Notes under the pieces: generated by a model
Told to the model about the DNA's origin: nothing
Databases searched by the model: none
What the model saw: the letters and a program-made list of their open reading frames with translations, nothing else
Program-made: the position numbers and the translations under genes
Origin: an uncultured Bacilli bacterium
GTDB taxonomy: Bacteria > Bacillota_I > Bacilli_A > RF39 > UBA660
DNA length: 64,000 bases
Assembly: GCA_934167695.1 (NCBI GenBank)
Contig: CAKPLP010000003.1
Span: 11,529 to 75,528, forward strand
Direction: 5' to 3'
Shown here: positions 38,477-56,588 of the stretch, in pieces
Layout of the letters: each line of letters begins with the position of its first letter
How positions within the stretch are numbered: position 1 is the stretch's first letter

Positions 38477-40675
38477 ATGGAATTAAACTATAAAAATGTT
38501 CAACAATTAAATTCACAACAAATTTTAGATTTGTTATTACCTGATTTTTCTAATATTTATGAAAGTTTTAATTATATAGAAATATCAAAAAATGAATTTT
38601 ATGTTTTGGTATTAGATAGCATTACTAAATCAAAAAAGATGTATAATGGAGATGTTTTATATAAGGAATATATTGAAAGTGTGGTAACTAATAGACTTAT
38701 TGAGCATGTTAAATTAGATTTGTCTAAACCTGATAAAGCGGTTATTATTTTAAATAATTATATAAATAAATTTTTTAAGGTGGAAAATGATTTAGAAGAT
38801 AGGGTAAAGAAATTGGAATGTTTTTTTGAAATTTATAATTATATTCCTAGATCGAATTTATTAATAAAAGTAATAGAAAAAAATGAGTTTCTATCAAAAA
38901 CTATAGAATTAATTATTGATAAGTATAAGGACGATTTTTCTTATGATATTTTAGAAAATCAATTTAATGATAGTGTAATATTGTTATTTATAAAAACATA
39001 CTGTAGTTTAAATAATATTTTATTAAATGATGAGGTAAAAGTAGAGTGTGAAAAAAAATTATTAGATGATGTTAATTTTAATGAAGAAAATTATTTTCAA
39101 CAAATAAAAAAAATACCATTATTATCTATAGAAGAAGAGCAAAATTTGATAAAGCGTGCATTACAAGGTGAAATTGAAGCAAAAAATTTGTTAGTTTGTA
39201 GCAATTTAAGATTAGTTAATAGTATAGCTAAAAAATATATCGGTAGAGGAGTGCCGTTACAGGATTTAATTCAAGAAGGTAGCATTGGTTTGATGAAGGC
39301 AATAGATAAATTTGACTTAAGTAAAGGTGTAAAGTTTTCAACTTATGCTACATATTGGATAAGACAAGTTATTACTAGATCAATATATGATGTTGGTAAG
39401 GATATTAGAATACCAGTATATTTATATAAAAAAATTAATTCTTATAAAGATGCTTTACAAGAGTTGAGATTAGAGTTAAATAGGTATCCAACACTTGATG
39501 AAGTGGCAGCTAAAATGGATTTGCCTATATCTGAAGTTACAGAATTATTAAAATCTCAAGGTGATGTAGTAAGCATGAACACACTGGTTAATGATGAAAA
39601 TGATACTGAATTACAAGATTTTATTCCTAATACAGATGAGAGTCCTGATGAGTTAGCTATTACTACTGTTATGCAGGAGCAAGTAAGAGATTTAATACAA
39701 AATAGTTCTCTAAGTCAAAGAGAAATAGAAATATTAATGTTGAGATTTGGCTTTAATGATAATAAGATTATGACTCTTGAAGAGATAGGAAAAAAATTAA
39801 ATATAACAAAGTCAAGAGTTGGACAAATTGAAGCACAAGCATTAATTAAATTAAGAAAATCTAAAAAAATTAAACAATTTGCAGAATATATGTCTAATCC
39901 TGAACAGGCATTAAAACGTTTAGATGAGTTTAGAAAATATTATTATGAAAATAACCGTGCATATAAAAGCTTTTTATATGAAGATAAAGTAAAACAAAAA
40001 ATAGAAGTGGGAGAACATAGTATGCCAAGAAAATTAAAATCAATTTATGAATATCTTAGTGATTATTCGAAGGAACAGATTGATGAATTGATAGAAGAGT
40101 TACCTGAAGAAGATAAAGAATTAATTAAAGTAAGATATGGTAGTGATTTAAGTAAACCTGTAATAGGAAAATTATCTAAAAATCAAAGGGATAGATTTTA
40201 TGGAAGTCTTATTCCTAAAATGAGAAAAAATTTAAATAAAAAAAGTAAAGCTCAAAATATTAATAAAATTGTTCAATCTGATTCAAGGAAGAATGATTAT
40301 ACTGAACAATTAAAAAAAGTAAATCAATCTGCACAGGTACCTTTTAAAACAAATTTAGAAGATTCTAATATTAAGGAAAGTGAAGAATTGATTACAAAAG
40401 ATGATTATATTAAAATGTTAGAATTATTAAGAACTCCTAATTTTAGCCAAATGATAGCTGTTCTAACGGTAAAGGAAGCTGTAATTATTTCTTTAAAATT
40501 AGGATATGTAAATGGTGAATATTTTTCAACTGAGGCTATTGCTCAATTCTTAGGAATAGAAAAAGCCGAAGTTATAGAAACTACAAAAAAAGTGCTACTC
40601 TTATATAAAGAAAATATTAATCAGTTTATTGATCATGCAGTTGAAGTGATAGAAAAGAGTAAAATTAAAAAATAA
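38477..40675 (+). CDS. sigma-70 family RNA polymerase sigma factor (RpoD/SigA-like regions 1.2-4) with approximately 270-aa C-terminal extension
   Basis: Region 2 (LRLVNSIAKKYIGRGVPLQDLIQEGSIGLMKAIDKFDLSKGVKFSTYATYWIRQ). Region 3. Region 4.2 (LEEIGKKLNITKSRVGQIEAQALIKLRK). Then extra region-4-like repeats (ELIKVRYGSDL...; KEAVIISLKLGYVNGEYFSTEAIAQFLGIEKAEVIETTKKVLLLYK). Confidence 0.8.
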   Translation: MELNYKNVQQLNSQQILDLLLPDFSNIYESFNYIEISKNEFYVLVLDSITKSKKMYNGDVLYKEYIESVVTNRLIEHVKLDLSKPDKAVIILNNYINKFFKVENDLEDRVKKLECFFEIYNYIPRSNLLIKVIEKNEFLSKTIELIIDKYKDDFSYDILENQFNDSVILLFIKTYCSLNNILLNDEVKVECEKKLLDDVNFNEENYFQQIKKIPLLSIEEEQNLIKRALQGEIEAKNLLVCSNLRLVNSIAKKYIGRGVPLQDLIQEGSIGLMKAIDKFDLSKGVKFSTYATYWIRQVITRSIYDVGKDIRIPVYLYKKINSYKDALQELRLELNRYPTLDEVAAKMDLPISEVTELLKSQGDVVSMNTLVNDENDTELQDFIPNTDESPDELAITTVMQEQVRDLIQNSSLSQREIEILMLRFGFNDNKIMTLEEIGKKLNITKSRVGQIEAQALIKLRKSKKIKQFAEYMSNPEQALKRLDEFRKYYYENNRAYKSFLYEDKVKQKIEVGEHSMPRKLKSIYEYLSDYSKEQIDELIEELPEEDKELIKVRYGSDLSKPVIGKLSKNQRDRFYGSLIPKMRKNLNKKSKAQNINKIVQSDSRKNDYTEQLKKVNQSAQVPFKTNLEDSNIKESEELITKDDYIKMLELLRTPNFSQMIAVLTVKEAVIISLKLGYVNGEYFSTEAIAQFLGIEKAEVIETTKKVLLLYKENINQFIDHAVEVIEKSKIKK

Positions 40676-42744: not shown

Positions 42745-43518
42745 ATGAATAATAAGGGTTTTACTTTAGTGGAATTAATTGCAACTATTGCAATACTGGG
42801 GTTTGTGTCTTTGATGGCTTTTCCATCTATTAATAATGTTATATCTTCTAATAAGTCTAGTTCATGTAAGTATTATGAAAGGTCTATGATTGCTGCTGCG
42901 AAGAGTTTTATTCAGAAAGAAAAGTATGATATCATAGATGCATATAATGGTACTTTTCCTAGTAGTTTTGATATAGATTTAACTCAACTAATTATTTATG
43001 GTTATTTAGATGAGTATAAAGATAGTAAAACTAATATTAATACTGGTGCAAAAGTTGTTGTAAAATATGATCAAAGTAGTAATACATATATTTATAATAT
43101 TTCTAATTTAGTATGTAGTAGTAAGTCTAACAATAAAGAACTTTATTGTTCAGATCCTTCTAATCATTGTACTGGTGGTGAGTCTAAAAAGTATTTATTA
43201 CCGAATAATGAAGAGACTATTAATTTTAGAGATATTCCTACTAATGTTTTTCTTCAATCTTATAATAATCAGTTATCTCTTTGTACTAAGACTAGTGATT
43301 ATAGTTTAAAATGTTATAAAAATAATAATTATAATGGTTATATTAGTGAGTTAAGTAGTGATTCTAGTTGTTCTAATTTTGGGGATTTTTATCAATGTGA
43401 AGTTAGAACTGGTAGATGTAAAATATATAAAAATGGTAATGTTAGTTGTGATGATGATTATAATAGATGTTCAATCACATTAGATAAGGATGGTAAAACA
43501 AGTGGAAATTGTTCATAA
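42745..43518 (+). CDS. type IV prepilin-like protein (class III signal peptide GFTLVE) with Cys-rich 230-aa C-terminal domain
   Basis: MNNKGFTLVELIATIAILGFVSLMAF is a canonical prepilin N-terminal cleavage/methylation motif. About 13 Cys in the mature part. Confidence 0.65.
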   Translation: MNNKGFTLVELIATIAILGFVSLMAFPSINNVISSNKSSSCKYYERSMIAAAKSFIQKEKYDIIDAYNGTFPSSFDIDLTQLIIYGYLDEYKDSKTNINTGAKVVVKYDQSSNTYIYNISNLVCSSKSNNKELYCSDPSNHCTGGESKKYLLPNNEETINFRDIPTNVFLQSYNNQLSLCTKTSDYSLKCYKNNNYNGYISELSSDSSCSNFGDFYQCEVRTGRCKIYKNGNVSCDDDYNRCSITLDKDGKTSGNCS

Positions 43519-43580
43519 TGTTAGAAAAACATTTATAATTTTGTTATAATAATATTGTTGATTAGGAGATGGTTAGATTA

Positions 43581-44027
43581 ATGTATTGTAAAAACTGTGG
43601 AAGTGAAATTAGAAAAAACAGTAAATACTGTTCTAAATGTGGTACTAAAGTATTAGGTGAAGATATTAGTGAAAAAAAGAAAGAAAAAGAAAATGATTCC
43701 TCTTTTTGTAAGAATTGTGGCTGTAAGATAGAATCTAAAAATGTTTATTGTCCAAATTGTGGATATAATCTTATTAATAATACAAGTAATGTTAATAAAA
43801 ACTTAGTAGATGATCCTGTTGAAAGTTTTGTTATTTATGTTATTAGTTTTATTATACCACTCGTAGGTTTTATATTGTGGGTAATTACTAGAAAGGAAAA
43901 TCCTAAACGTGCAAAGAATATTTTAATAGTATCTTTTGTTTCTATTATTAGTGCAATTCTTTTAGTAGTTTTGGTATTGTTATTTGTTTCAGTTTATTTT
44001 TTTAATAGTTATGGAGGTGTATTATAA
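43581..44027 (+). CDS. double zinc-ribbon membrane protein (2 x CxxC-N-CxxC + two C-terminal TM helices)
   Basis: MYCKNCGSEIRKNSKYCSKCG and CKNCGCKIESKNVYCPNCG. C-terminal TMs. Alternative start ATG 43569. Confidence 0.55.
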   Translation: MYCKNCGSEIRKNSKYCSKCGTKVLGEDISEKKKEKENDSSFCKNCGCKIESKNVYCPNCGYNLINNTSNVNKNLVDDPVESFVIYVISFIIPLVGFILWVITRKENPKRAKNILIVSFVSIISAILLVVLVLLFVSVYFFNSYGGVL

Positions 44028-44383
44028 TGTATTGTAAAAAATGTAATAATAAAATTGATGAAGGAAGTAAGTTTTGTAGTTTTTGTGGAAGTAAAGTTGA
44101 AGAGGATGTAAATGTTGGTAAGGTTTATTGTACTCACTGTGGTGAACAGATAGATGATAATTTGAGTGTTTGTCCGTATTGTGGAAAAAGTGTTAAAAAT
44201 ACTGTTGTAGATAAGGATGATACTGAAAACTATTGGCTTGAAGTTTTGGGATTTTTAATACCTTTTGTTGGTCTTATAATTTGGTTGAGTATTAAAAGTA
44301 AATCGCCAGTAAAAGCTCAAGGTGTTTTAAGAACTACTGTTATAGGTTTTATATTTTGGTTTGTTTGGAATATTCTTTTTTAA
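44027..44383 (+). CDS. double zinc-ribbon membrane protein, paralog of the upstream gene
   Basis: MYCKKCNNKIDEGSKFCSFCG + CTHCGEQIDDNLSVCPYCG. Two C-terminal TMs. TAATG stop/start overlap. Confidence 0.55.
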   Translation: MYCKKCNNKIDEGSKFCSFCGSKVEEDVNVGKVYCTHCGEQIDDNLSVCPYCGKSVKNTVVDKDDTENYWLEVLGFLIPFVGLIIWLSIKSKSPVKAQGVLRTTVIGFIFWFVWNILF

Positions 44384-46911: not shown

Positions 46912-47451
46912 ATGGAAAAGAAATCTCTAAAAAAAGAAAAGAATATGACTAAAAATTATTTTATTTTATTTTTTATAATTTTACTTACAGTATTATTTGT
47001 TTGGTATATTTGTAAGTGGTATCAAGTATATTCTGATTATCAAAAAGAAACTCCTGTTATTCGTGGTACTTTAAATTATGAAATAACTGGACTAGAGCTT
47101 GATCACTATATTATGGAAAATCCTAGTTGTGTTATTTATATGTGTACTTCAAGTAGTGATAGTTGCAGATCATTTGAAAAAGATTTTAAAAAGTTAATTG
47201 TGAAGAAAAATTTACAAAATAATATTATATATTTAAATTTAAGTGATGTTGATATTAATACTTTTGTTACTAACTTTAATGATAGTTATCATTATAAAAT
47301 AAAGCTTACAGAGAATTATCCGGCGATAGTAGAATTTACTGATGGTAAAGTTACTGGATTATTGGAGGGTACTACTGATAATCGTCTTACTATTACTAAA
47401 GTAGATCAGTTTATTGATTTACATCAAATTGGATTAGAAGAAGAAAGTTAA
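46912..47451 (+). CDS. hypothetical N-terminally anchored membrane protein (179 aa)
   Basis: TM YFILFFIILLTVLFVWYI. AGAGGAGTG RBS. No recognisable motif. Confidence 0.4.
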   Translation: MEKKSLKKEKNMTKNYFILFFIILLTVLFVWYICKWYQVYSDYQKETPVIRGTLNYEITGLELDHYIMENPSCVIYMCTSSSDSCRSFEKDFKKLIVKKNLQNNIIYLNLSDVDINTFVTNFNDSYHYKIKLTENYPAIVEFTDGKVTGLLEGTTDNRLTITKVDQFIDLHQIGLEEES

Positions 47452-47987: not shown

Positions 47988-48016
47988 AAAAATCGGTTTG
48001 TTTGCCGATTTTTATT
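47986..48016. terminator. bidirectional intrinsic terminator (AAATCGG-TTTGTTTG-CCGATTT)
   Basis: 7-bp stem flanked by an A-run and a T-run, between convergent trmL (+) and the thioredoxin-like gene (-). Confidence 0.6.
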
Positions 48017-48419
48017 TTATATATTTTAATTTTTTTAATGTGTTTTTTAATTTTTTATCACTAATAGAACCTGTGATTCGGCTACTAACAATTTCTTTTC
48101 CCTTATTGAAAAACATTGTAGTAGGAGTTCCTTCAAATGTATATTTTTCATTAAACTTATTGTAATCGCTTTCTGAAATATAAGAAATATTTAAATTATA
48201 AGCTTCTAAATTATTATCTTTTAAAATAGTCTTTAATCTTGGTGTAAATTCTTCACAATGACTACAACCATCTTGAGTAATTTCTAATATAAATGTTTCT
48301 TTTTTATCTATCATATCTTTAATTTCATCATAGCTTACTCTTTTTAGTGTATTTTGACATCCTGTTAATAGTAAAATTGCTATTAAAAACAAGGGAATCT
48401 TTATAAATATCTTTTTCAT
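48012..48419 (-). CDS. thioredoxin-fold lipoprotein (CxxC = CSHC), extracytoplasmic thiol-disulfide oxidoreductase candidate
   Basis: Lipobox LLTGC. CSHCEEF active-site-like motif in a thioredoxin-like context (ITQDGCSHC). Confidence 0.65.
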   Translation of the reverse strand: MKKIFIKIPLFLIAILLLTGCQNTLKRVSYDEIKDMIDKKETFILEITQDGCSHCEEFTPRLKTILKDNNLEAYNLNISYISESDYNKFNEKYTFEGTPTTMFFNKGKEIVSSRITGSISDKKLKNTLKKLKYIK

Positions 48420-48520: not shown

Positions 48521-50086
48521 ATGATTTTTAGAAAACCTTATGCATTTTTAATTAAAAATTTTAGAAAGATTCATATTACAATTTTAGCGGCATGGCTTTT
48601 TATTTATTTTAAAGTCAATGATATAACTAGTTTTGTAAGTGAATTTATTGGGTTTGGTACTTATAGTTCTTCGTTAGAATCTTTTTCATCTAAGGTTGGT
48701 ATTTTATTTTATTTAGCTGTTATTTTTATTATAGTAAGTAGTTTATTATTACTTATACTATTAAAAAGAAAGGATAAGCCTTGGAAAGTATATCTTATTT
48801 ATATATTTGAATATGTATTATTACTTTTTGCAGTTATTTTTCTATCTGGATTTTTTTCTTCATATACAATTAATACTAATGTTAGTGGAGTATTAATATA
48901 TAGAGATATGTTAAACATATCTAAATATTTACAATATGTAGTTTTAGTTTTTTTAGTTATAAGAGTTTTGGGTATTGATCTTAAGAAATTTAATTTTAAG
49001 AATGATGAGGAATTTTTAGAGCTTAGTAGTGATGATAGAGAAGAGTTTGAGATTAGTTTTGATTTTGATAAGAATTCTATTAAAAGAGGATTTAATAGGT
49101 TTAAAAGAAATTTTAATTATTTTTATCGTGAGCATAAATTTATATGTGATATTTTTATGATTGGATGTTTGGTGTTTTTAATTGGATATTCTTATTATTA
49201 TTTTGGAATTGTTCATAAATCTTATAAGCAGGGAAAAACATTTAATTCTGGTATTTATAGTATTACTGTAAATGATAGTTATGTAACTAATAAAGATTAT
49301 GCTGGTAATAGTATAGAGAAAGGTTATAAATTTGTTATTGTAAAGGTTAGTATAAAAAATAATTATAATAAAACTGTTGAACCTAATTTAGATAGATTTC
49401 ATTTAGTTAATAAAAATACTGAAAGATCATATTCTAGTTTTTATAACAGCTATTTTAAGGATCTTGGAGATGGTGCTGATGATGCTATTAAAATTAATAC
49501 TGGTAAGGAAAAATCTGTTTATTTAGTTTATAGAGTAAAGGGTGATCTTGATAATAAAAAGTTTGTATTATATTACCAAGAACTTGGAGGAAAACTTAGA
49601 AGTTATTTAAGAAAGATAAAACTAAATATTCAGGATGTTTCAGAAATTAAGGATGTTGGTGAATATAATAAGGGTGATAAAATAGATTTTAGTTATGTTT
49701 CTGGTACTAAAAAGAAAATTACTATTACTGATAGCGCTATTCAGTCTAGTTTTGCTTATCATAGATATTATTGTCCAACTTCTTCTATGTGTGGTGTGTA
49801 TGATGAAAATTTAACTGCTGAAGAGGGGAAACTTCTTTTAAAAATTTCTTTTGCTTCAAGTGATTTTGAAGGCGAAGATTTTATTGACTTTTCATCTAGT
49901 TATGGTAAAATTAAATATATAGATAATAAGGGTAAAACTCAATATGCAAGTATTAAAAATGCTATTAAAACGAATTATCAAGGCAAGGAAATTTTTATTA
50001 GTAGTGATGCTGATGTTTTGAATTCAGAAAAAATTTGGATAGAATATATCCTTAGAAACAAAAGATATGTTTTAAGAATAAAGTAA
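48521..50086 (+). CDS. hypothetical polytopic membrane protein with beta-rich extracellular C-terminal domain (521 aa)
   Basis: Four to five N-terminal TMs. The C-terminal 300 aa are hydrophilic with Cys. Confidence 0.45.
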   Translation: MIFRKPYAFLIKNFRKIHITILAAWLFIYFKVNDITSFVSEFIGFGTYSSSLESFSSKVGILFYLAVIFIIVSSLLLLILLKRKDKPWKVYLIYIFEYVLLLFAVIFLSGFFSSYTINTNVSGVLIYRDMLNISKYLQYVVLVFLVIRVLGIDLKKFNFKNDEEFLELSSDDREEFEISFDFDKNSIKRGFNRFKRNFNYFYREHKFICDIFMIGCLVFLIGYSYYYFGIVHKSYKQGKTFNSGIYSITVNDSYVTNKDYAGNSIEKGYKFVIVKVSIKNNYNKTVEPNLDRFHLVNKNTERSYSSFYNSYFKDLGDGADDAIKINTGKEKSVYLVYRVKGDLDNKKFVLYYQELGGKLRSYLRKIKLNIQDVSEIKDVGEYNKGDKIDFSYVSGTKKKITITDSAIQSSFAYHRYYCPTSSMCGVYDENLTAEEGKLLLKISFASSDFEGEDFIDFSSSYGKIKYIDNKGKTQYASIKNAIKTNYQGKEIFISSDADVLNSEKIWIEYILRNKRYVLRIK

Positions 50087-50101: not shown

Positions 50102-51871
50102 ATGGAAAAGAATAAGGTTAAAAAGAATGTAACTGTTATTATAATTGCACTTATAGTTATTATTGGTTTATGGCTTATTATTATTTATCCACTTATTAAA
50201 TTTAATGAAAATGAAAAAACTGTTATTAATGCCACTAAGAGGTATTTTGAAATTAATAGTAATAAACTTCCTAGAGAGGGTGATATAAAAACTATTTCTG
50301 TTGGTGATTTATTAGATCAAAAGTATATTACTGATTTGAGGACTGCCTATAATAATGATACTTGTGAAGCTAGAACTAGTTGGGTTAAGGTAAAGAAGGT
50401 AAATGGAGATTATAAATATTATGTTTATTTGAAATGCGGTATCTTTAGTTCTAATGTCGATCATGAAGGACCTGAGATTGTTCTTAATGGTGATGATAAA
50501 ATAGAAATAGAAAAAGGCGAGAAGTTTGTTGATCCGGGAGTTAAGAGTGTTAAAGATAATACAGATGGTAATATAGATTTAAAGAAGGTATATACAAAGG
50601 GTGAAGTTAATACTGATAAAGTTGGAACATATATAATTACTTATGGTGCTATAGATAGTTTTGAAAATAAGACTGAAGTTCAACGTAAGGTTATTGTTTC
50701 ACAAAGTTTATCTAATACCGTTGAAATTAATACAGATAAAGACAATATTTATAAGGGTGCTGTTCAAAATAATTATATAAGATTCTCTGGTCAACTATTT
50801 AGAATCGTTGGTTTGGATAGTAATGGTAATGTTAAGATTGTAAGTAATGAAGATATTGCTAGTGTAGATTATAAATCTGTTAATGATTGGTTAAATAATT
50901 ACTATTATAATAACCTTGCAAAAAGTTCAAGGAAATATGTTGTTACTAATTATGAATGGTGTAGTGATAGCGTTAGTAAAGATAAAGTTGATAGTGTTAA
51001 TAAGTGTAATAATAAAGAAATTAAACAAAATGTTGGACTTTTATCAATAAATGAGTATAATAGTAGCTTAAAGGAGGGGGAGAGTTACCTTTATACTAAT
51101 ACTATTAATTGGACAATGAATGCTTTGAATTCTAAAAAAGCTTGGACAACTAAAGATAATTTTATTGGAAAAACTTCTAAATATTTGGAATATAGTAGAA
51201 ATTATAATTTTAAGGTTAGACCTAGTTTGGTTTTGAAAAATGGTATTAAAATTAAATCTGGTGATGGAACAGTTGATAACCCATACGATATAGGTGATTT
51301 TAAGATTGCTAAGCCGGGTAGTAAAGTTTCTAAGAGATATAGCGGTGAATATATTAAATATGGTGGTAATTTATATCGCATTATAAATTCTGATAGTGAG
51401 GGTTATACAAAAGTTATTTCTATTTATAATTTAGCTGATTATACTACTACTTATGGAAGTGGAAATCAATATAATCCTAATAAAGCAGGTAACATTGCGT
51501 ATGTTATTGAAAATACAGTTAGTACTTATAATAAAGTTAGTATTTTTGCAAAACATCAAATAGAAGTTCCAATTTATAAAGGTATTGCTACTTATAGTGG
51601 TGAAAAAACAACAAAGAAATATAATGTTAAATTTAGTGCACCTAGTATGTATGAAATGTATAGTTCTTATTATGATTCTTTCTGGTATATAGAATCTTCT
51701 AAGCAAAGTGATATTAAATATGCTTCTAGTTATAACGGTACTGTTTACTTTGATATGGATGATATTACAGATATTAATACTCATATTATGTATACTGGAT
51801 ATATGAAAAAGACAAGCGTTATTATTAGTGGTAGTGGAACTATGAGTGATCCATATGAAGTAGATTATTAG
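50102..51871 (+). CDS. N-terminally anchored surface protein with DUF5011-type Ig-like domain
   Basis: TM VTVIIIALIVIIGLWLIIIY. EGPEIVLNGDDKIEIEKGEKFVDPGVKSVKDNTDGNIDL...VGTYIITYGAIDSFENKTEVQRKVIV matches the DUF5011 pattern. Disulfide-bounded segment CEARTSW...YLKC near the N-terminus. Confidence 0.55.
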   Translation: MEKNKVKKNVTVIIIALIVIIGLWLIIIYPLIKFNENEKTVINATKRYFEINSNKLPREGDIKTISVGDLLDQKYITDLRTAYNNDTCEARTSWVKVKKVNGDYKYYVYLKCGIFSSNVDHEGPEIVLNGDDKIEIEKGEKFVDPGVKSVKDNTDGNIDLKKVYTKGEVNTDKVGTYIITYGAIDSFENKTEVQRKVIVSQSLSNTVEINTDKDNIYKGAVQNNYIRFSGQLFRIVGLDSNGNVKIVSNEDIASVDYKSVNDWLNNYYYNNLAKSSRKYVVTNYEWCSDSVSKDKVDSVNKCNNKEIKQNVGLLSINEYNSSLKEGESYLYTNTINWTMNALNSKKAWTTKDNFIGKTSKYLEYSRNYNFKVRPSLVLKNGIKIKSGDGTVDNPYDIGDFKIAKPGSKVSKRYSGEYIKYGGNLYRIINSDSEGYTKVISIYNLADYTTTYGSGNQYNPNKAGNIAYVIENTVSTYNKVSIFAKHQIEVPIYKGIATYSGEKTTKKYNVKFSAPSMYEMYSSYYDSFWYIESSKQSDIKYASSYNGTVYFDMDDITDINTHIMYTGYMKKTSVIISGSGTMSDPYEVDY

Positions 51872-51887
51872 TATTAAGGTGTTAAGT

Positions 51888-52697
51888 ATGAAAAAAAGTG
51901 TGAGAAGAAAAAAGAATATTATGAATAAGAAAATTATTATTTTACTAATTTTTCTTCTTGCTATTTTAGCATTATTATATCTGTTTAAACGATTAGATTT
52001 AAAACAGATTTTTGTTCCTATATATGAAGTGAGTGATAGGACAAGCAATGTTAAAAAAGCGAGTAAGAAATATAGTGATCAAGCTGATGTAGTTGGTTGG
52101 ATAAAAGTTCAGGGCACTAATATTGATTACCCTGTAGTTTATGAAGATGGTTCTACTACTGAAAGATATTCATTTAATTATGCTTGGATTAACAGAAATA
52201 ATAAAAAATTGACTAATAGACCAATTATCTTTAGTCATAATATTAGAAATGTTTCAAGTCAACCTCTCATAGGTGATAAGGAAATGGATCAGTTTGAACA
52301 GTTGATGTCATATATTTATTATAATTTCAATAAGGATAATAAATATATTCAATATACTGTTAATGGTAAGAATTATTTATATCAAATATTTTCTGTTTCT
52401 ATTGTTGATGATAATTTAATAGATTATTACGATACATCTTACACTAAAAAAGAAATGAAAAAATATATTAAAGAAAGTTTGAATGATAGTTATTTTAAAT
52501 ATGATGTTGATGTAAGTGAAGATGATAAAATTATTACCTTAGTTACATGTACAAGATTTGATGGAAAATTACTTAATGATTTTAAAATAGATGCAAAATT
52601 AATTGACAAAAATAAAGGGTATAACTATAATGTTTCTGAAAAGAAAAATTATGATTATGTTAAAAAAATATTAAAAGGAGATGGCAATGATGTATAA
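51888..52697 (+). CDS. srtB: class B sortase
   Basis: DVVGWIKVQGTNIDYPVV, catalytic His region IIFSHNIRN, TLVTCT catalytic Cys motif and the following basic segment parallel S. aureus SrtB. Start at MKKSVRR after AAGGTG. Confidence 0.75.
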   Translation: MKKSVRRKKNIMNKKIIILLIFLLAILALLYLFKRLDLKQIFVPIYEVSDRTSNVKKASKKYSDQADVVGWIKVQGTNIDYPVVYEDGSTTERYSFNYAWINRNNKKLTNRPIIFSHNIRNVSSQPLIGDKEMDQFEQLMSYIYYNFNKDNKYIQYTVNGKNYLYQIFSVSIVDDNLIDYYDTSYTKKEMKKYIKESLNDSYFKYDVDVSEDDKIITLVTCTRFDGKLLNDFKIDAKLIDKNKGYNYNVSEKKNYDYVKKILKGDGNDV

Positions 52698-55600
52698 AGA
52701 TATGATTAAAAAGTGGGTTGGAATGTTATTTGTACTAGCCATTTGTGTTACTTTTTCAGTATTTGATGTTGATGCGAAGAGTACATGTACTAAAAGTGCT
52801 GCTAAAAAGTATTATAATGTTAGAATAGTAAGAAATGGAACTGATGATAAAACTGATTCTATAACTGTTAAAGCAAGTAATGGAAAATTTTATTTGAAAC
52901 TTGTTTCTTATGATAGTAATTTAACAAAAGAACAAATTGCAAAAGATAGTACTATTCCTGTTATTAATTCTACTAGTCCTCTTGTAGGTGGTAAGAGTTA
53001 TAAAATTACTAATAGCCAATTAAGAAATTATTATGATGGTGATGGTGCTTTAGCTGTTAAAATTGTAGCGATATTTGATTCTAATACTGAGGATGATAAA
53101 GATGCAGTGTGTGATGGTGATGATAAGTATATTAGAATGATTACTTATAGTGAACAGTTAGATGATGATAAAAGTACTACATCTTATAATGTTTCTGGTA
53201 ATACTCAAGGATGTATTGATCTAAATAATTTTATAAAGAGTCATTCTGATTATTTTGATTCAAAAATGTTAGATATTTCAAAATCTATTTTACCATCATG
53301 TTTTAATCAAAAAGTAACTTACAATGTTAGTGATGATACAATAGCAATATTAGAAAAAGAAATAGAGAAAATATATAATAATTATAAGAAATATAAAAAG
53401 AATACTGGTGATAGTGGTAATTTTGATGTTGAACTTCAAAAATTAAAAACTTTATCTTCTGATTGGATAGAAATAAAGAAGAAAAATAAAGCAAATCACC
53501 TAACCATTTCTGATAATACAGATAAAACATATAAAAAATTAGGTTCTAATAGTAGCAGTATGTTAACTTGTAGTACTAAAAATGAACGTGTTGAAACTAA
53601 ATTATTCTATATAAATGAAGAAAAAAATACTATTGATTATACTATCGGTGATGGTAGTGTTGGTTCTAAAGTAAAAAAGGATAATGTTGATGTATGTACA
53701 ACTGTTTGTAGAGAAAAGGTATCAATTTCATATGGTCCTCCGGTTGCAGTTGTCGCTGGCCAATGTTTTACATATGAAGTAGAAGTTAAGAGTAACGTTG
53801 AATGTATTGCTCAAGTTAATTATGATGTTTTCCCTAAATTTTCAGATTTTGAACCTTGTACAATATATGGTAGTTGTATAACTTCAGCAGGTCACGAACT
53901 TACTGGTTATAATGAACAAGCTGGTCCAACTGAAGACTTTGATAGTTGTGTAAATAGTTGTGATGGTGGTAAATATAGTCAATCATGTATAAATTCTTGT
54001 TATTCAAAAGTTTATGAAAAATCAACTGATACAAAATCTACTACTAAAACAAGTAGTGCTGATAGTGATAATACTGATATTATTGGTTATGCTTTAGATA
54101 CTCTTAATATTTCTAATAATTCAAAAGTTAGTAAAGTTAAATGGAATGGTAGTAATAGAGTTACTAGTTATACTTTAGATTCTGCTTGTCCTTCTGCAAG
54201 TGCTAGCGTTGATGAAGTTTATAATTGGGTAAATAAAAATATTACTGGTAATTATACATCTGCAGGTGGTACTTTAACTTACCAACCAAAGAATGGTGGA
54301 TGTATTTGGAGTCGATACGGTTATGCATATTTTAGAACTAAACAATTAGCTGCAAGAACCGTTTGTAATGCTCAAGGATATAACTGGATAAGTGGTAGAG
54401 AAAACTGTGAATTTACAAGTAATCCTAATGCAGATAATTATGAATACTATGATAATTGTTTGGCTAGTCAAGGTTGCTATAAAGGTAGAATGAAGAGTGG
54501 ATATAGATGTAAAAATGGTTATGATATTAGTGATTCTAGATGTGAACGAGTAAATTATTATGGTAATTATTATAACCCAGAAAATGGATTTAAACGTCAA
54601 AATGGATGTAGTGAATCTTGTAAATGGAAAGTAAAAAATAATGGTACTTGTAAATATGTTGACAGAGAGAAAGCTGAAAAGGATTATATTAATTCTATCA
54701 AGAAAATTTATGAGGCTTTGGATGGATGTATGAGTAAGGCTGCTGCAACATGTAATACTTCTAATTCTGTTTCTTATACTATGTCTGCTAATACTGATAC
54801 TACTACAACAAATCAATCATGTACTAATGGTAACTATGAATCTAATGGTAATTGTATTGACAAGGATCAATGGTATAATCAATCTAAAACTAAACAAACA
54901 ACTGGAAAAGTTAATAATCTAGATTTAGCTCAAAATACTATTATTAAATTAAATGATGGTAAATGTTATCAAAATAAGAGTGAAGATAATATGTATCATG
55001 GTATTATTACTTTCCCTGGTGCTTGGATTAATAATAAGACTGGAAAAGTTACTTATAGGAAACCAGCTTCTGAAGAAGAAAAATGGTATACATCATATAC
55101 TGGTAATTATTGTACTCCATTAATTGCTAAAAATGTTAATGCTAATTGGTGGACATGGCATTATTACAATAAAACGGGTTCTATTACAAAAGAGTTTGAT
55201 CAATGGGAGTCAGCAGGAGATATTAAAAATATAGTTTATAATATCTTTAGTAAAATAAAGAACTTTGGTAAATATAATTGGAATATAAATACTGGTTGTT
55301 TCTATGCTATTAATAACTATACTGGTAAACCTTGTGATAGTAGTTCATCTAAATGTGATACTATAACTGATACTGAAGTTCCAGGTCCAGAACATTGTAC
55401 TAGTTCTAGTTGTCCTAAAAAAGATGACCAGCTAAAAGCTGAGAATAATTCTAAAGTTGATAATTATTCTTCTAAGTCTATTACTTCATCTAATTTATTC
55501 CCATCTACTAAAACTAGTTCTTTGACTGATAAAACAGTACCTGCTGTTAAATTAAGTTATGGTAAAAAAATGGCTGATACTAATTCATCTACTAGGTCTG

Positions 55601-56076
55601 AAGGATATAACTGGTCTGTTCAAGCAACTAATTTATCTGTTAAAAATTATCCAGTTACTCCTTCTTCACTAGTTAAGAAAATACAAGCTGGTAATACTTA
55701 TGTTGATTCAGAAATTGATTATGAATTTAAATTAACTAAAGAACAAATAAGTACTATTAAGAATGAATCTAAAAGTAGTACTAGTGATAAATTTTATATT
55801 AATTATGCTAATAATTATGTTAAGTTAAATAATAATGCTGATTATAAAAAGACATTCCAAAACTATAATTTAAATACAAATGATGTTGATGGTATAAGTT
55901 TTTATAAAAGTAATTACATTAGAAGTCATGCGACTAAAGTATATGCACCAGATGGAAATGCTTTAAAATGTAATAATTTAAAGCGAAATGGTTCAAATTA
56001 TAGTTGTGATATGTTAACTGATTATGTTAAGAGTGATTCTGAACTTCAAAGTTGGTTAAGCAAGGTAAATAGTTAA
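52687..56076 (+). CDS. large secreted Cys-rich protein (about 1130 aa), no recognisable domain
   Basis: Signal peptide (…VFDVDA|KS). More than 50 Cys, S/T/N-rich. No C-terminal sortase signal or TM visible. Confidence 0.55.
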   Translation: MMYKDMIKKWVGMLFVLAICVTFSVFDVDAKSTCTKSAAKKYYNVRIVRNGTDDKTDSITVKASNGKFYLKLVSYDSNLTKEQIAKDSTIPVINSTSPLVGGKSYKITNSQLRNYYDGDGALAVKIVAIFDSNTEDDKDAVCDGDDKYIRMITYSEQLDDDKSTTSYNVSGNTQGCIDLNNFIKSHSDYFDSKMLDISKSILPSCFNQKVTYNVSDDTIAILEKEIEKIYNNYKKYKKNTGDSGNFDVELQKLKTLSSDWIEIKKKNKANHLTISDNTDKTYKKLGSNSSSMLTCSTKNERVETKLFYINEEKNTIDYTIGDGSVGSKVKKDNVDVCTTVCREKVSISYGPPVAVVAGQCFTYEVEVKSNVECIAQVNYDVFPKFSDFEPCTIYGSCITSAGHELTGYNEQAGPTEDFDSCVNSCDGGKYSQSCINSCYSKVYEKSTDTKSTTKTSSADSDNTDIIGYALDTLNISNNSKVSKVKWNGSNRVTSYTLDSACPSASASVDEVYNWVNKNITGNYTSAGGTLTYQPKNGGCIWSRYGYAYFRTKQLAARTVCNAQGYNWISGRENCEFTSNPNADNYEYYDNCLASQGCYKGRMKSGYRCKNGYDISDSRCERVNYYGNYYNPENGFKRQNGCSESCKWKVKNNGTCKYVDREKAEKDYINSIKKIYEALDGCMSKAAATCNTSNSVSYTMSANTDTTTTNQSCTNGNYESNGNCIDKDQWYNQSKTKQTTGKVNNLDLAQNTIIKLNDGKCYQNKSEDNMYHGIITFPGAWINNKTGKVTYRKPASEEEKWYTSYTGNYCTPLIAKNVNANWWTWHYYNKTGSITKEFDQWESAGDIKNIVYNIFSKIKNFGKYNWNINTGCFYAINNYTGKPCDSSSSKCDTITDTEVPGPEHCTSSSCPKKDDQLKAENNSKVDNYSSKSITSSNLFPSTKTSSLTDKTVPAVKLSYGKKMADTNSSTRSEGYNWSVQATNLSVKNYPVTPSSLVKKIQAGNTYVDSEIDYEFKLTKEQISTIKNESKSSTSDKFYINYANNYVKLNNNADYKKTFQNYNLNTNDVDGISFYKSNYIRSHATKVYAPDGNALKCNNLKRNGSNYSCDMLTDYVKSDSELQSWLSKVNS

Positions 56077-56099: not shown

Positions 56100-56588
56100 A
56101 TGAATAAAGCGTTTTTGACTATTGGAATTATTTTAATGGCTATCTTGGGTTTCTATAGTATAAGTTTAGTAAGTAGCCAGCAATCTGGTTCTGAACTTGA
56201 TTATTACTTATTAAAAGAAACTACTGAGTCTGCTATGAATGATGCTGTTGATATGACTTATTATCGTCAATTTGGGGTTTTGAGGATGGATAAAGAAAAA
56301 TTTATGGAAAGCTTTATTAAAAGATTTGCAGTCAGTGTAGATGGTACTAGGGATTATGATATCAAAGTTTATGATATAAATGAGACACCTCCAAAGGTTA
56401 GTATTAGAATTAATTCTGATAAAGCAACTCAAACAATTAAAGGATTTGGTGGTACTAATAATATAGATATTACTACTAATGCTGATATGATTCTTGAAGA
56501 TAATAATAAGACTAATGTTGGTGTTACTAATAAGAATATAGATTATATTAAAGCTTTGAAAATTAAAAGTGTTAATGATATAAAATAA
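56100..56588 (+). CDS. hypothetical N-terminally anchored protein (162 aa)
   Basis: N-terminal hydrophobic helix AFLTIGIILMAILGFYSISLV. GGAGGTG RBS. Located immediately upstream of the cpaB-like gene. Confidence 0.4.
   Translation: MNKAFLTIGIILMAILGFYSISLVSSQQSGSELDYYLLKETTESAMNDAVDMTYYRQFGVLRMDKEKFMESFIKRFAVSVDGTRDYDIKVYDINETPPKVSIRINSDKATQTIKGFGGTNNIDITTNADMILEDNNKTNVGVTNKNIDYIKALKIKSVNDIK

Follow-up and report, generated by a model that had tools for sequence, protein, structure and literature searches.

Within a 64,000-nucleotide (nt) stretch of DNA from an uncultured Bacilli bacterium (positions 11,529 to 75,528 of contig CAKPLP010000003.1, assembly GCA_934167695.1; hereafter the window, whose own numbering is used for all features), we investigated a gene encoding a large, cysteine-rich exported protein (52681..56076, + strand; 1128-1131 amino acids (aa), 40 Cys). 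About 200 species of anaerobic gut Bacilli conserve this 1100-aa exported protein with its ~19 probable disulfides, and, within a large and conserved gene cluster that combines a Tad-like pilus with a type IV secretion system (T4SS), it stands out as the most distinctive component; it may form the contact part of that machinery.

The cysteine-rich open reading frame (ORF) is a real, intact gene. It runs unbroken along the + strand from the first ATG at 52681 to a stop codon at 56074-56076, giving 1131 aa counted from that ATG, and its in-frame ATGs at 52681, 52687 and 52690 all lie downstream of an AAGGAG sequence at 52672-52677. The ATG at 52687, taken as the start in an earlier reading of the window made without database searches (the sequence-only reading), has the best spacing from AAGGAG; public gene calls start at 52690 and yield the 1128-aa protein on which residue numbering is based throughout. 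That earlier reading had named a fusion artefact of several genes as a possible flaw. The ORF is not such an artefact, because more than 100 of the best 150 listed clusters of homologs align over the whole length (about 900-1150 aa), their representatives matching end to end across profile positions 1-990 of 993.

The G+C content of the window is 26.7%, and a perfect sigma-70 consensus, TTGACA-17-TATAAT, occurs at 52603-52631 (+), inside the 3' end of the preceding sortase gene and ~50 nt upstream of the cysteine-rich gene. The chance expectation of such a match was estimated at ~0.08 for the region. In relatives, strong promoter matches are not enriched at this site, so that the element was taken as chance or strain-specific rather than as the gene's own promoter.

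The N-terminus has the layout of a classical Sec/signal peptidase I (SPase I) signal (residues 1-29; 52690..52776, +), with a K-rich n-region, a hydrophobic stretch of ~15 residues and a DVDA/K junction, cleavage being predicted after DVDA, and a [VAIST]xA site occupies the equivalent position in 142 of 148 family members. This bears out the Sec signal peptide proposed in the sequence-only reading, and the composition is likewise S/K/N/T-rich, as described there. The signal peptide is the sole hydrophobic segment of the protein, and neither an LPXTG/NPQTN-like motif ([LNSIVQ]PxT[GNASD]) nor a C-terminal anchor is present, again in line with that reading. Two other types of signal were considered and rejected: a class III prepilin signal is ruled out by the classical cleaved Sec signal and by a Gly that is found in close relatives without being conserved in the family, and a lipoprotein signal by C19, which is present in only 11 of the 148 sequences and is preceded by residues that form no lipobox.

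A word-indexed search recovered 65 homologs, and an exhaustive profile search recovered 658 clusters at 50% identity, 473 of them below 1e-30. Scanning species-representative genomes yielded 199 encoding loci, all of them in metagenome-assembled genomes assigned to uncultured Bacilli, Tenericutes or Mollicutes, 'Mycoplasma sp. CAG:877', 'Clostridium sp. CAG:417' and Candidatus Onthousia. The group has small genomes, has not been cultured and is common in the guts of humans and animals. The window itself encodes a Mur ligase, a D-Ala-D-Ala ligase, a PASTA kinase and an anaerobic ribonucleotide reductase, so that its host is read as a walled anaerobe. The cysteine-rich protein gave no tblastn match in plasmid and phage collections, carries no name in the cluster look-up or in public records, and has no published description, either as a family or as part of a sortase/cysteine-rich/Tad/T4SS cluster architecture, in the literature searched.

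Domain layout, cysteines and variation

An AlphaFold2 model built with a 72-sequence alignment (mean predicted local distance difference test score (pLDDT) 73, predicted template modelling score 0.58, 284 residues at pLDDT ≥90) depicts a multi-domain protein with two disordered linkers. The variable N-terminal head (52822..53409, +) comprises a predicted Ig/FN3-like beta-sandwich (residues 45-154) and a helical region (173-240). The conserved core that follows (residues 294-442; 53569..54015, +) is modelled at pLDDT 86-94 as three ~20-residue beta-strands and a twin CX3C hairpin (nt 53932-54015); it carries the motif YGPPVAxxAGxCFxYEV and the invariant residues C294, C340, E342, P351, C372, G412, C420, Y429 and C437. 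Beyond an S/T/K-rich linker of low conservation (residues 444-496; 54019..54177, +), disordered with pLDDT <50 in both models, lies the fourth structured segment (residues 497-655), an alpha/beta region that holds hypervariable, Cys-knotted loops (residues 567-632; 54388..54585, +) rich in insertions and deletions across the family. A further conserved region (residues 656-875; 54655..55314, +) begins with a long helix (659-685), continues as a beta-rich domain and carries the motifs SFPGxWINNKTGE and FGxFxWNxxxxCFYA. The second linker, disordered in the AlphaFold2 model (residues 891-970), contains the short motif [FY]x[FI][RK]xVDLxxLFP (residues 925-938; 55462..55503, +), represented in the window by NYSSKSITSSNLFP, with F937 and P938 conserved in at least 90% of sequences; as a speculation, this motif is a candidate docking strand. 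The conserved C-terminal alpha/beta domain (residues 971-1128; 55600..56073, +) begins with GRxPG[FY]NWS and includes the covarying pair C1094-C1106, whereas the very end of the protein is modelled as helical and varies across the family.

Both the family and the greater part of its fold are new. As the sequence-only reading had stated, no domain is recognisable: scans of the protein against Pfam, NCBIfam, PHROGs and PADLOC gave no match, nor did Pfam scans of 29 homologs, and searches of PDB sequences, whether started from the single sequence or from a profile of 72 sequences, found nothing at E values up to 10. In Foldseek comparisons of the first model with the PDB, the best match, an archaeal pilin, reached E 0.053, which is not significant, and many matches to pore toxins were weak and likewise not significant; BFVD gave no significant match. 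Maturation proteins of single-stranded RNA phages, which bind pili, recurred in the Foldseek output (Qbeta A2 in the PDB, many in BFVD) at probability ≤0.04 and with very large root-mean-square deviations, and probably share only a long-beta-sheet character with the cysteine-rich protein.

The sequence-only reading had put the number of cysteines above 50. The protein contains 40, one of which (C19) falls within the signal peptide, leaving an odd number, 39, in the mature form. At 3.55%, Cys is nevertheless far more frequent than across the window's remaining 55 + strand ORFs (1.38%; binomial P about 1e-7). Positions are conserved across the family, with 15 Cys columns occupied in at least 141 of 148 sequences, and the more variable cysteines come and go together: residues 424 and 433 co-occur in 139/139 sequences, 711 and 722 in 32/32, and the long-range pair 390 and 654 in 128/128, with further covariation for 559-573 (18/19) and 1094-1106 (111). 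The Cys motif CVNSCDGGKYSQSCINSC singled out in the sequence-only reading is present at residues 420-437. In the predicted model, its arrangement, C420-x3-C424...C433-x3-C437, falls on a pair of successive helices (residues 415-425 and 431-442). The small Tim proteins found in the mitochondrial intermembrane space are disulfide-stapled helical hairpins with twin CX3C motifs, and the cysteine-rich protein resembles them in having C-x3-C...C-x3-C on two consecutive helices. This likeness extends to no more than 28 residues and is one of analogy, without homology, in another compartment and inside an 1100-aa protein. Repeated disulfide-rich modules, which the sequence-only reading had suggested looking for, did not emerge: hhalign profile-profile comparison of six segments revealed no internal repeats.

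The Cys pattern fits disulfides better than metal sites, and the protein probably contains ~19 disulfide bonds. That these would form outside the cytoplasm, as the sequence-only reading had implied, receives indirect support from the paired gain and loss of cysteines, from two candidate catalysts encoded upstream, and from conserved Cys pairs in other exported proteins encoded nearby. The first candidate catalyst is a thioredoxin-fold lipoprotein (48012..48419, - strand; Pfam Thioredoxin 7.5e-9) with a conserved TGC lipobox and a CSHC motif within GCSHCEEF, which adjoins the cluster in 27 of 79 related loci and whose DsbA-like C-x-H-C motif makes it a candidate extracytoplasmic thiol-disulfide oxidoreductase. 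The second is a membrane-anchored DUF6568/PedC-like protein (46912..47451, +; PF20207 9.2e-39). Conserved Cys pairs are not confined to the cysteine-rich protein: the pseudopilins and the VirB2-like, Ig-like and DUF4352 proteins described below have them too, and a canonical type IV pilin encoded farther upstream in the window has 12 Cys. Cysteine is generally excluded from exported proteins in Firmicutes (PMC2823432), and the lineage therefore looks like an exception, one that seems to depend on extracellular oxidative folding.

An alternative on a separate axis from the question of function, and one that we regard as improbable, is that the cysteines bind metals (Zn or Fe-S) or remain reduced in the anoxic gut. 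The CX3C...CX3C and C-x-C spacings would also suit metal binding, the number of cysteines in the mature protein is odd, the host is anaerobic, and no DsbB/VKOR is seen in the window. Against this, cysteines are lost and gained strictly in twos, including the long-range 390-654 pair, whereas metal sites normally lose three to four ligands jointly; no conserved His or Asp partners stand beside the cysteines; a lipoprotein with a DsbA-like C-x-H-C motif adjoins the cluster; and the twin CX3C on adjacent helices would, by analogy, resemble the disulfide-stapled hairpins of the small Tim proteins.

Conservation is distributed unevenly along the protein. Across the family, the N-terminal third, both linkers and residues 561-640 are the least conserved parts. 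Among six strain variants (≥93% identity), residues 561-640, which make up 7% of the length, hold 26% of the variable columns and fall into two haplotypes, and the N- and C-termini are invariant. In strains of the same species, the loop region 567-632 occurs in two clearly different haplotypes within a nearly identical protein, a pattern that suggests recombination or diversifying selection acting on an exposed surface.

Paralogs within one genome diverge most over the N-terminal third. A second copy of the cysteine-rich gene occurs in five loci (L038, L059, L065, L076 and L051), usually with neighbours, and a complete second set (Ig-like, sortase, cysteine-rich, DUF5411) only in L038. Over the N-terminal 20-30% of the protein, identity between paralogs is 14-24% in four of the five pairs and 38-42% in L065, and over the last 40% it is 55-75% in three pairs and 24-40% in L051 and L059. 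Comparing the paired copies gene by gene, identity is 50-55% for the Ig-like protein, 41-59% for the sortase and 45-61% for the cysteine-rich protein; for DUF5411 it reaches 97-100% in three of four genomes compared and 67% in L059. These sequence comparisons suggest that the Ig-like protein, the sortase and the cysteine-rich protein diversify together as a trio, while the machine into which they fit stays constant.

The surrounding gene cluster

The cysteine-rich gene occupies a fixed place in a cluster of ~30 kb in which a Tad-like (type IVc) pilus is combined with a Gram-positive-type T4SS. Gene order is near-invariant in 79 loci, each from a different species: DUF4352 protein, Ig-like protein, class-B-like sortase, cysteine-rich protein, DUF5411 protein, CpaB/RcpC and CpaF-type ATPase, continuing with two platform-like membrane proteins, a 50-aa Flp-like pilin, pseudopilins, a 325-aa protein and VirB2-like proteins. 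Among these loci, the sortase is kept in 78, the Ig-like protein in 76, DUF5411 and CpaB in 75 each and the ATPase in 74. The position between sortase and Tad genes that was noticed in the sequence-only reading is therefore general, with the same order in 75-78 of the 79 loci.

The cluster opens with a polytopic membrane protein that bears an extracellular DUF4352 domain (48521..50086, +), followed by an N-terminally anchored surface protein with a Bact_surface_Ig-like domain (50102..51871, +), the member of the trio that co-diversifies with the sortase and the cysteine-rich protein. The sortase (51879..52697, +; Pfam Sortase 1.1e-8) has an N-terminal membrane anchor and is class-B-like: its best PDB matches are SrtB enzymes (2e-13), and against TIGR03064 it scores 68 bits, where the cutoff is 153.75. 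His120 and Cys224 of the TLxTC motif are conserved in 78 of 79 sequences, and the catalytic-Arg position is occupied in the family by K/R at 236 and R/K at 240. As the earlier reading had pointed out for the window, the sortase gene overlaps the start of the cysteine-rich ORF, and its stop does so in every locus, by -8 to -71 nt. None of the 21 cluster proteins checked carries a canonical sorting signal, so that any sortase substrate in the cluster must be non-canonical. The small, N-terminally anchored DUF5411 protein (56100..56588, +; Pfam 3.5e-46) always comes next after the cysteine-rich gene, its start lying -32 to +22 nt from the cysteine-rich stop.

Genes for the Tad-like motor and platform (56616..60590, +) encode a CpaB/RcpC-like protein, a CpaF/TadA-type ATPase, closest to CpaF (7e-20) before FlaI and VirB11, and two polytopic membrane proteins that would correspond to TadB/TadC by position and membrane topology only. 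The ATPase (57458-58885, +) has a long N/S/Q-rich C-terminal tail (residues ~345-475) in which a motif occurs twice, as NYYDMYAPKKIEN and SYFDMFAPKKMGN. The pilin-like group (60661..62768, +) consists of a 50-aa Flp-like pilin, two pseudopilin-like proteins that start with MRDAxG... and each contain a conserved Cys pair, and a cytoplasmic protein of 325 aa that occupies the place of TadZ. The 50-aa pilin (60661-60813, +) has a conserved MKxATG/ELNxTV sequence with Glu at +1, deviating from the Flp G/xxxxEY motif. No prepilin peptidase gene is present in the cluster.

A small VirB2/T4SS-pilin-like membrane protein (62831..63184, +), which has a conserved Cys pair and for which a relative shows a weak PF18895 match, is the first of the T4SS half, and the cluster runs on past the end of the window. 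Missed in the sequence-only reading was this continuation on the same contig into a full Gram-positive-type T4SS, comprising a 267-aa exported protein, VirB6/TrbL-like and VirB3-like proteins, a split VirB4 (TraC-like plus P-loop_TraG), a glucosaminidase/C39-like wall hydrolase and VirD4. The continuation is also found in distant relatives, and all 48 loci that reach far enough contain the VirB6-like gene. Loci L083 (11041-20978), L081, L082 and L084 cover the part beyond the window.

Housekeeping genes flank the cluster, with U32 peptidase and SpoU methylase genes upstream, both of them neighbours common to many species, and rhodanese, RmuC and tRNA synthetase genes downstream. No relaxase or integrase domains were found up to these flanking genes, a result that a relaxase of unmodelled type among the unannotated genes could escape. 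Given these flanks and the lack of relaxase and integrase matches, the locus is read as a chromosomal, vertically inherited Tad-like plus T4SS supercluster rather than a typical conjugative element. An origin as a conjugative or other mobile element was considered and rejected, as no relaxase or integrase was found, the cysteine-rich protein has no plasmid or phage match, and the chromosomal neighbours are shared.

Candidate roles of the cysteine-rich protein

We tentatively favour, short of confidence, the reading of the cysteine-rich protein as a surface or tip adhesin, the contact part of a pilus-plus-secretion machine. It draws on context, on patterns of variation and on analogy with known adhesins, from which we infer both the location of the protein and its binding function. 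The protein would be a Sec-exported, multi-domain, extracellular component, braced by ~19 disulfides and dedicated to a vertically inherited cluster. Its variable N-terminal head, with the Ig-like sandwich and helices, and its Cys-knotted loops would bind the target surface, and its central and C-terminal domains, which are conserved, would serve for docking: small anchored proteins (DUF5411, pseudopilins) may hold it to the tip of the Tad-like filament, or it may sit on the cell surface together with the Ig-like surface protein. The class-B-like sortase encoded by the overlapping gene may process the protein or attach it via a non-canonical site.

The closest functional parallels are PilC/PilY1 proteins, which are exported via Sec/SPase I, combine diverse N-terminal adhesin domains with a conserved C-terminal domain and usually have several disulfides. 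Their genes stand next to those for minor pilins, and beta-strand complementation locks the proteins to a minor pilin at the pilus tip (PMC12918778). With these, and with MshQ of the MSHA pilus, the cysteine-rich protein shares a length of ~1000-1200 aa, Sec/SPase I export, a variable N-terminal and a conserved C-terminal part, and several, here probable, disulfides; it, too, is a non-pilin encoded in a type IV filament cluster beside small N-terminally anchored proteins. However, there is no sequence or fold similarity, the C-terminal beta-propeller is absent, the extreme C-terminus is helical and variable, and the host is a monoderm with a Tad-like rather than a type IVa filament, in which an overlapping sortase-like gene is always present. 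Another candidate parallel, TadG/CpaL, is a large accessory Tad protein thought to sit at the filament tip (PMC12918778). It differs in having a pilin-like N-terminal domain and signal, whereas the cysteine-rich protein has a cleaved Sec signal, no Tad/TadE Pfam match and about twice the length.

PrgB/aggregation substance (pCF10) and TraO (pIP501) are surface adhesins of Gram-positive conjugative T4SS. They, and CnaB-type proteins next to the cst locus, resemble the cysteine-rich protein in being large surface proteins at the head of a T4SS with a sortase. Such proteins heading Gram-positive T4SS gene sets have been proposed to mediate cell-cell contact (PMC5770547). Unlike them, with their LPXTG signals, known adhesin domains, almost Cys-free sequences and location on mobile elements, the cysteine-rich protein has no sorting signal, contains 40 Cys and belongs to a chromosomal, syntenic cluster. 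By analogy only, we therefore view it as an analogue, not a homologue, of PilC/PilY1, MshQ and the Gram-positive conjugation adhesins. DUF5411 itself has one previous mention, as part of a Tad-like operon, itself uncharacterised, in gut Clostridia (Miller et al. 2022, PMC9523054). In the passages that describe it, that operon shares with the present cluster DUF5411, a CpaF-type ATPase, a platform protein and a large putative cell-contact protein, but this last is internalin-like, and those passages mention no sortase, cysteine-rich protein or T4SS half; the comparison is one of descriptions (PMC9523054). The functional category that we assign to the cysteine-rich protein is a known one, and there is a real chance that the machine as a whole is undescribed.

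Several observations speak against an adhesin. The gene lies 4.7 kb away from the pseudopilin genes, not among them; no fold match to an adhesin, PilY1 propeller, vWA or lectin domain was obtained; and the conserved core, together with invariant E342, N851, N974 and W975, would equally suit a structural or enzymatic part of the machine. With no canonical sortase motif in the cluster, the link between sortase and substrate is conjecture, and both candidate catalytic-Arg positions are Lys in the window sortase. As regards the disulfides, the organism is an anaerobe (NrdD), and no DsbB/VKOR-type reoxidase is seen in the window.

The alternative that survives best, although we consider it unlikely, is a structural, envelope-spanning part, such as a wall-spanning stalk, conduit or stator, that replaces the secretin or core complex missing in monoderms. 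The single copy per cluster in nearly all genomes, the invariant position, the strongly conserved core with its invariant residues and very long beta-strands, and the mechanical strength that disulfides would lend are all compatible with such a part, as is a weak, non-significant Foldseek likeness to elongated beta-hairpin assemblies. What argues against such a part is the variation described above: an N-terminal third and internal loops that vary fast, and duplicates with a diverged N-terminal part, unusual for a core machine component. The protein also has no membrane segment.

The protein might instead be a secreted effector or toxin, or a cargo that the Tad/T4SS machine receives or releases, with a target cell as its site of action. 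This would account for the missing anchor and for the proximity to secretion genes, and Foldseek returned weak matches to aerolysin, lysenin, iota Ib and the membrane attack complex (MAC), all at probability ≤0.1. T4SS substrates are, however, cytoplasmic and lack Sec signals, and a protein with its own Sec signal needs no further secretion system in a monoderm, which makes the sequence-only suggestion of a substrate carried by the machinery less likely. With no immunity-like gene evident and strict vertical inheritance together with the machine in about 200 species, we judge this role improbable. Least probable is an extracellular enzyme, a glycan- or wall-active hydrolase serving the machine, for which large size and the invariant polar residues E342, D425 (in a 29-sequence set), N817, N851 and N974 might speak, whereas these residues are spread over several domains, no enzyme family matches by sequence or fold, and the cluster already has its glucosaminidase/C39-like wall hydrolase.

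The surface end of what would be the main cell-contact machine of these bacteria offers a clear way into the question of how they attach to hosts or partner bacteria or trade material with them, and it is also a possible antigen or marker. If the sortase acts on its motif-less partner, encoded by the overlapping gene, known sortase recognition would widen. A more ambitious proposal, which we put forward as doubtful, is that of a so far undescribed hybrid machine, a Tad-like filament and a Gram-positive-type T4SS chromosomally fixed in a whole lineage of gut Bacilli, whose contact end is a new disulfide-rich fold, processed or attached without LPXTG by a dedicated sortase-like enzyme, and which would serve contact-dependent exchange, with DNA or other material as the presumed cargo. 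Were this true, such a hybrid exchange machine could explain the partner dependence and the resistance to cultivation of these reduced-genome bacteria.

Other genes upstream of the cluster

A second Cys-rich exported protein encoded in the window is a canonical type IV pilin (42745-43518, +) that begins with MNNKG/FTLVELIA... (Pfam N_methyl 3.5e-7) and has 12 Cys in its globular part; a PilD-type prepilin peptidase should therefore be encoded elsewhere in the genome. Between this pilin gene and the U32 peptidase gene lie two neighbouring genes for small proteins (43569-44027 and 44027-44383, +), each with a double zinc-ribbon N-terminus (6-7% Cys) followed by membrane segments. Farther upstream, a sigma-70 family protein of 732 aa (38477-40675, +) contains regions 2-4 at residues 240-461, with long N- and C-terminal extensions on either side.

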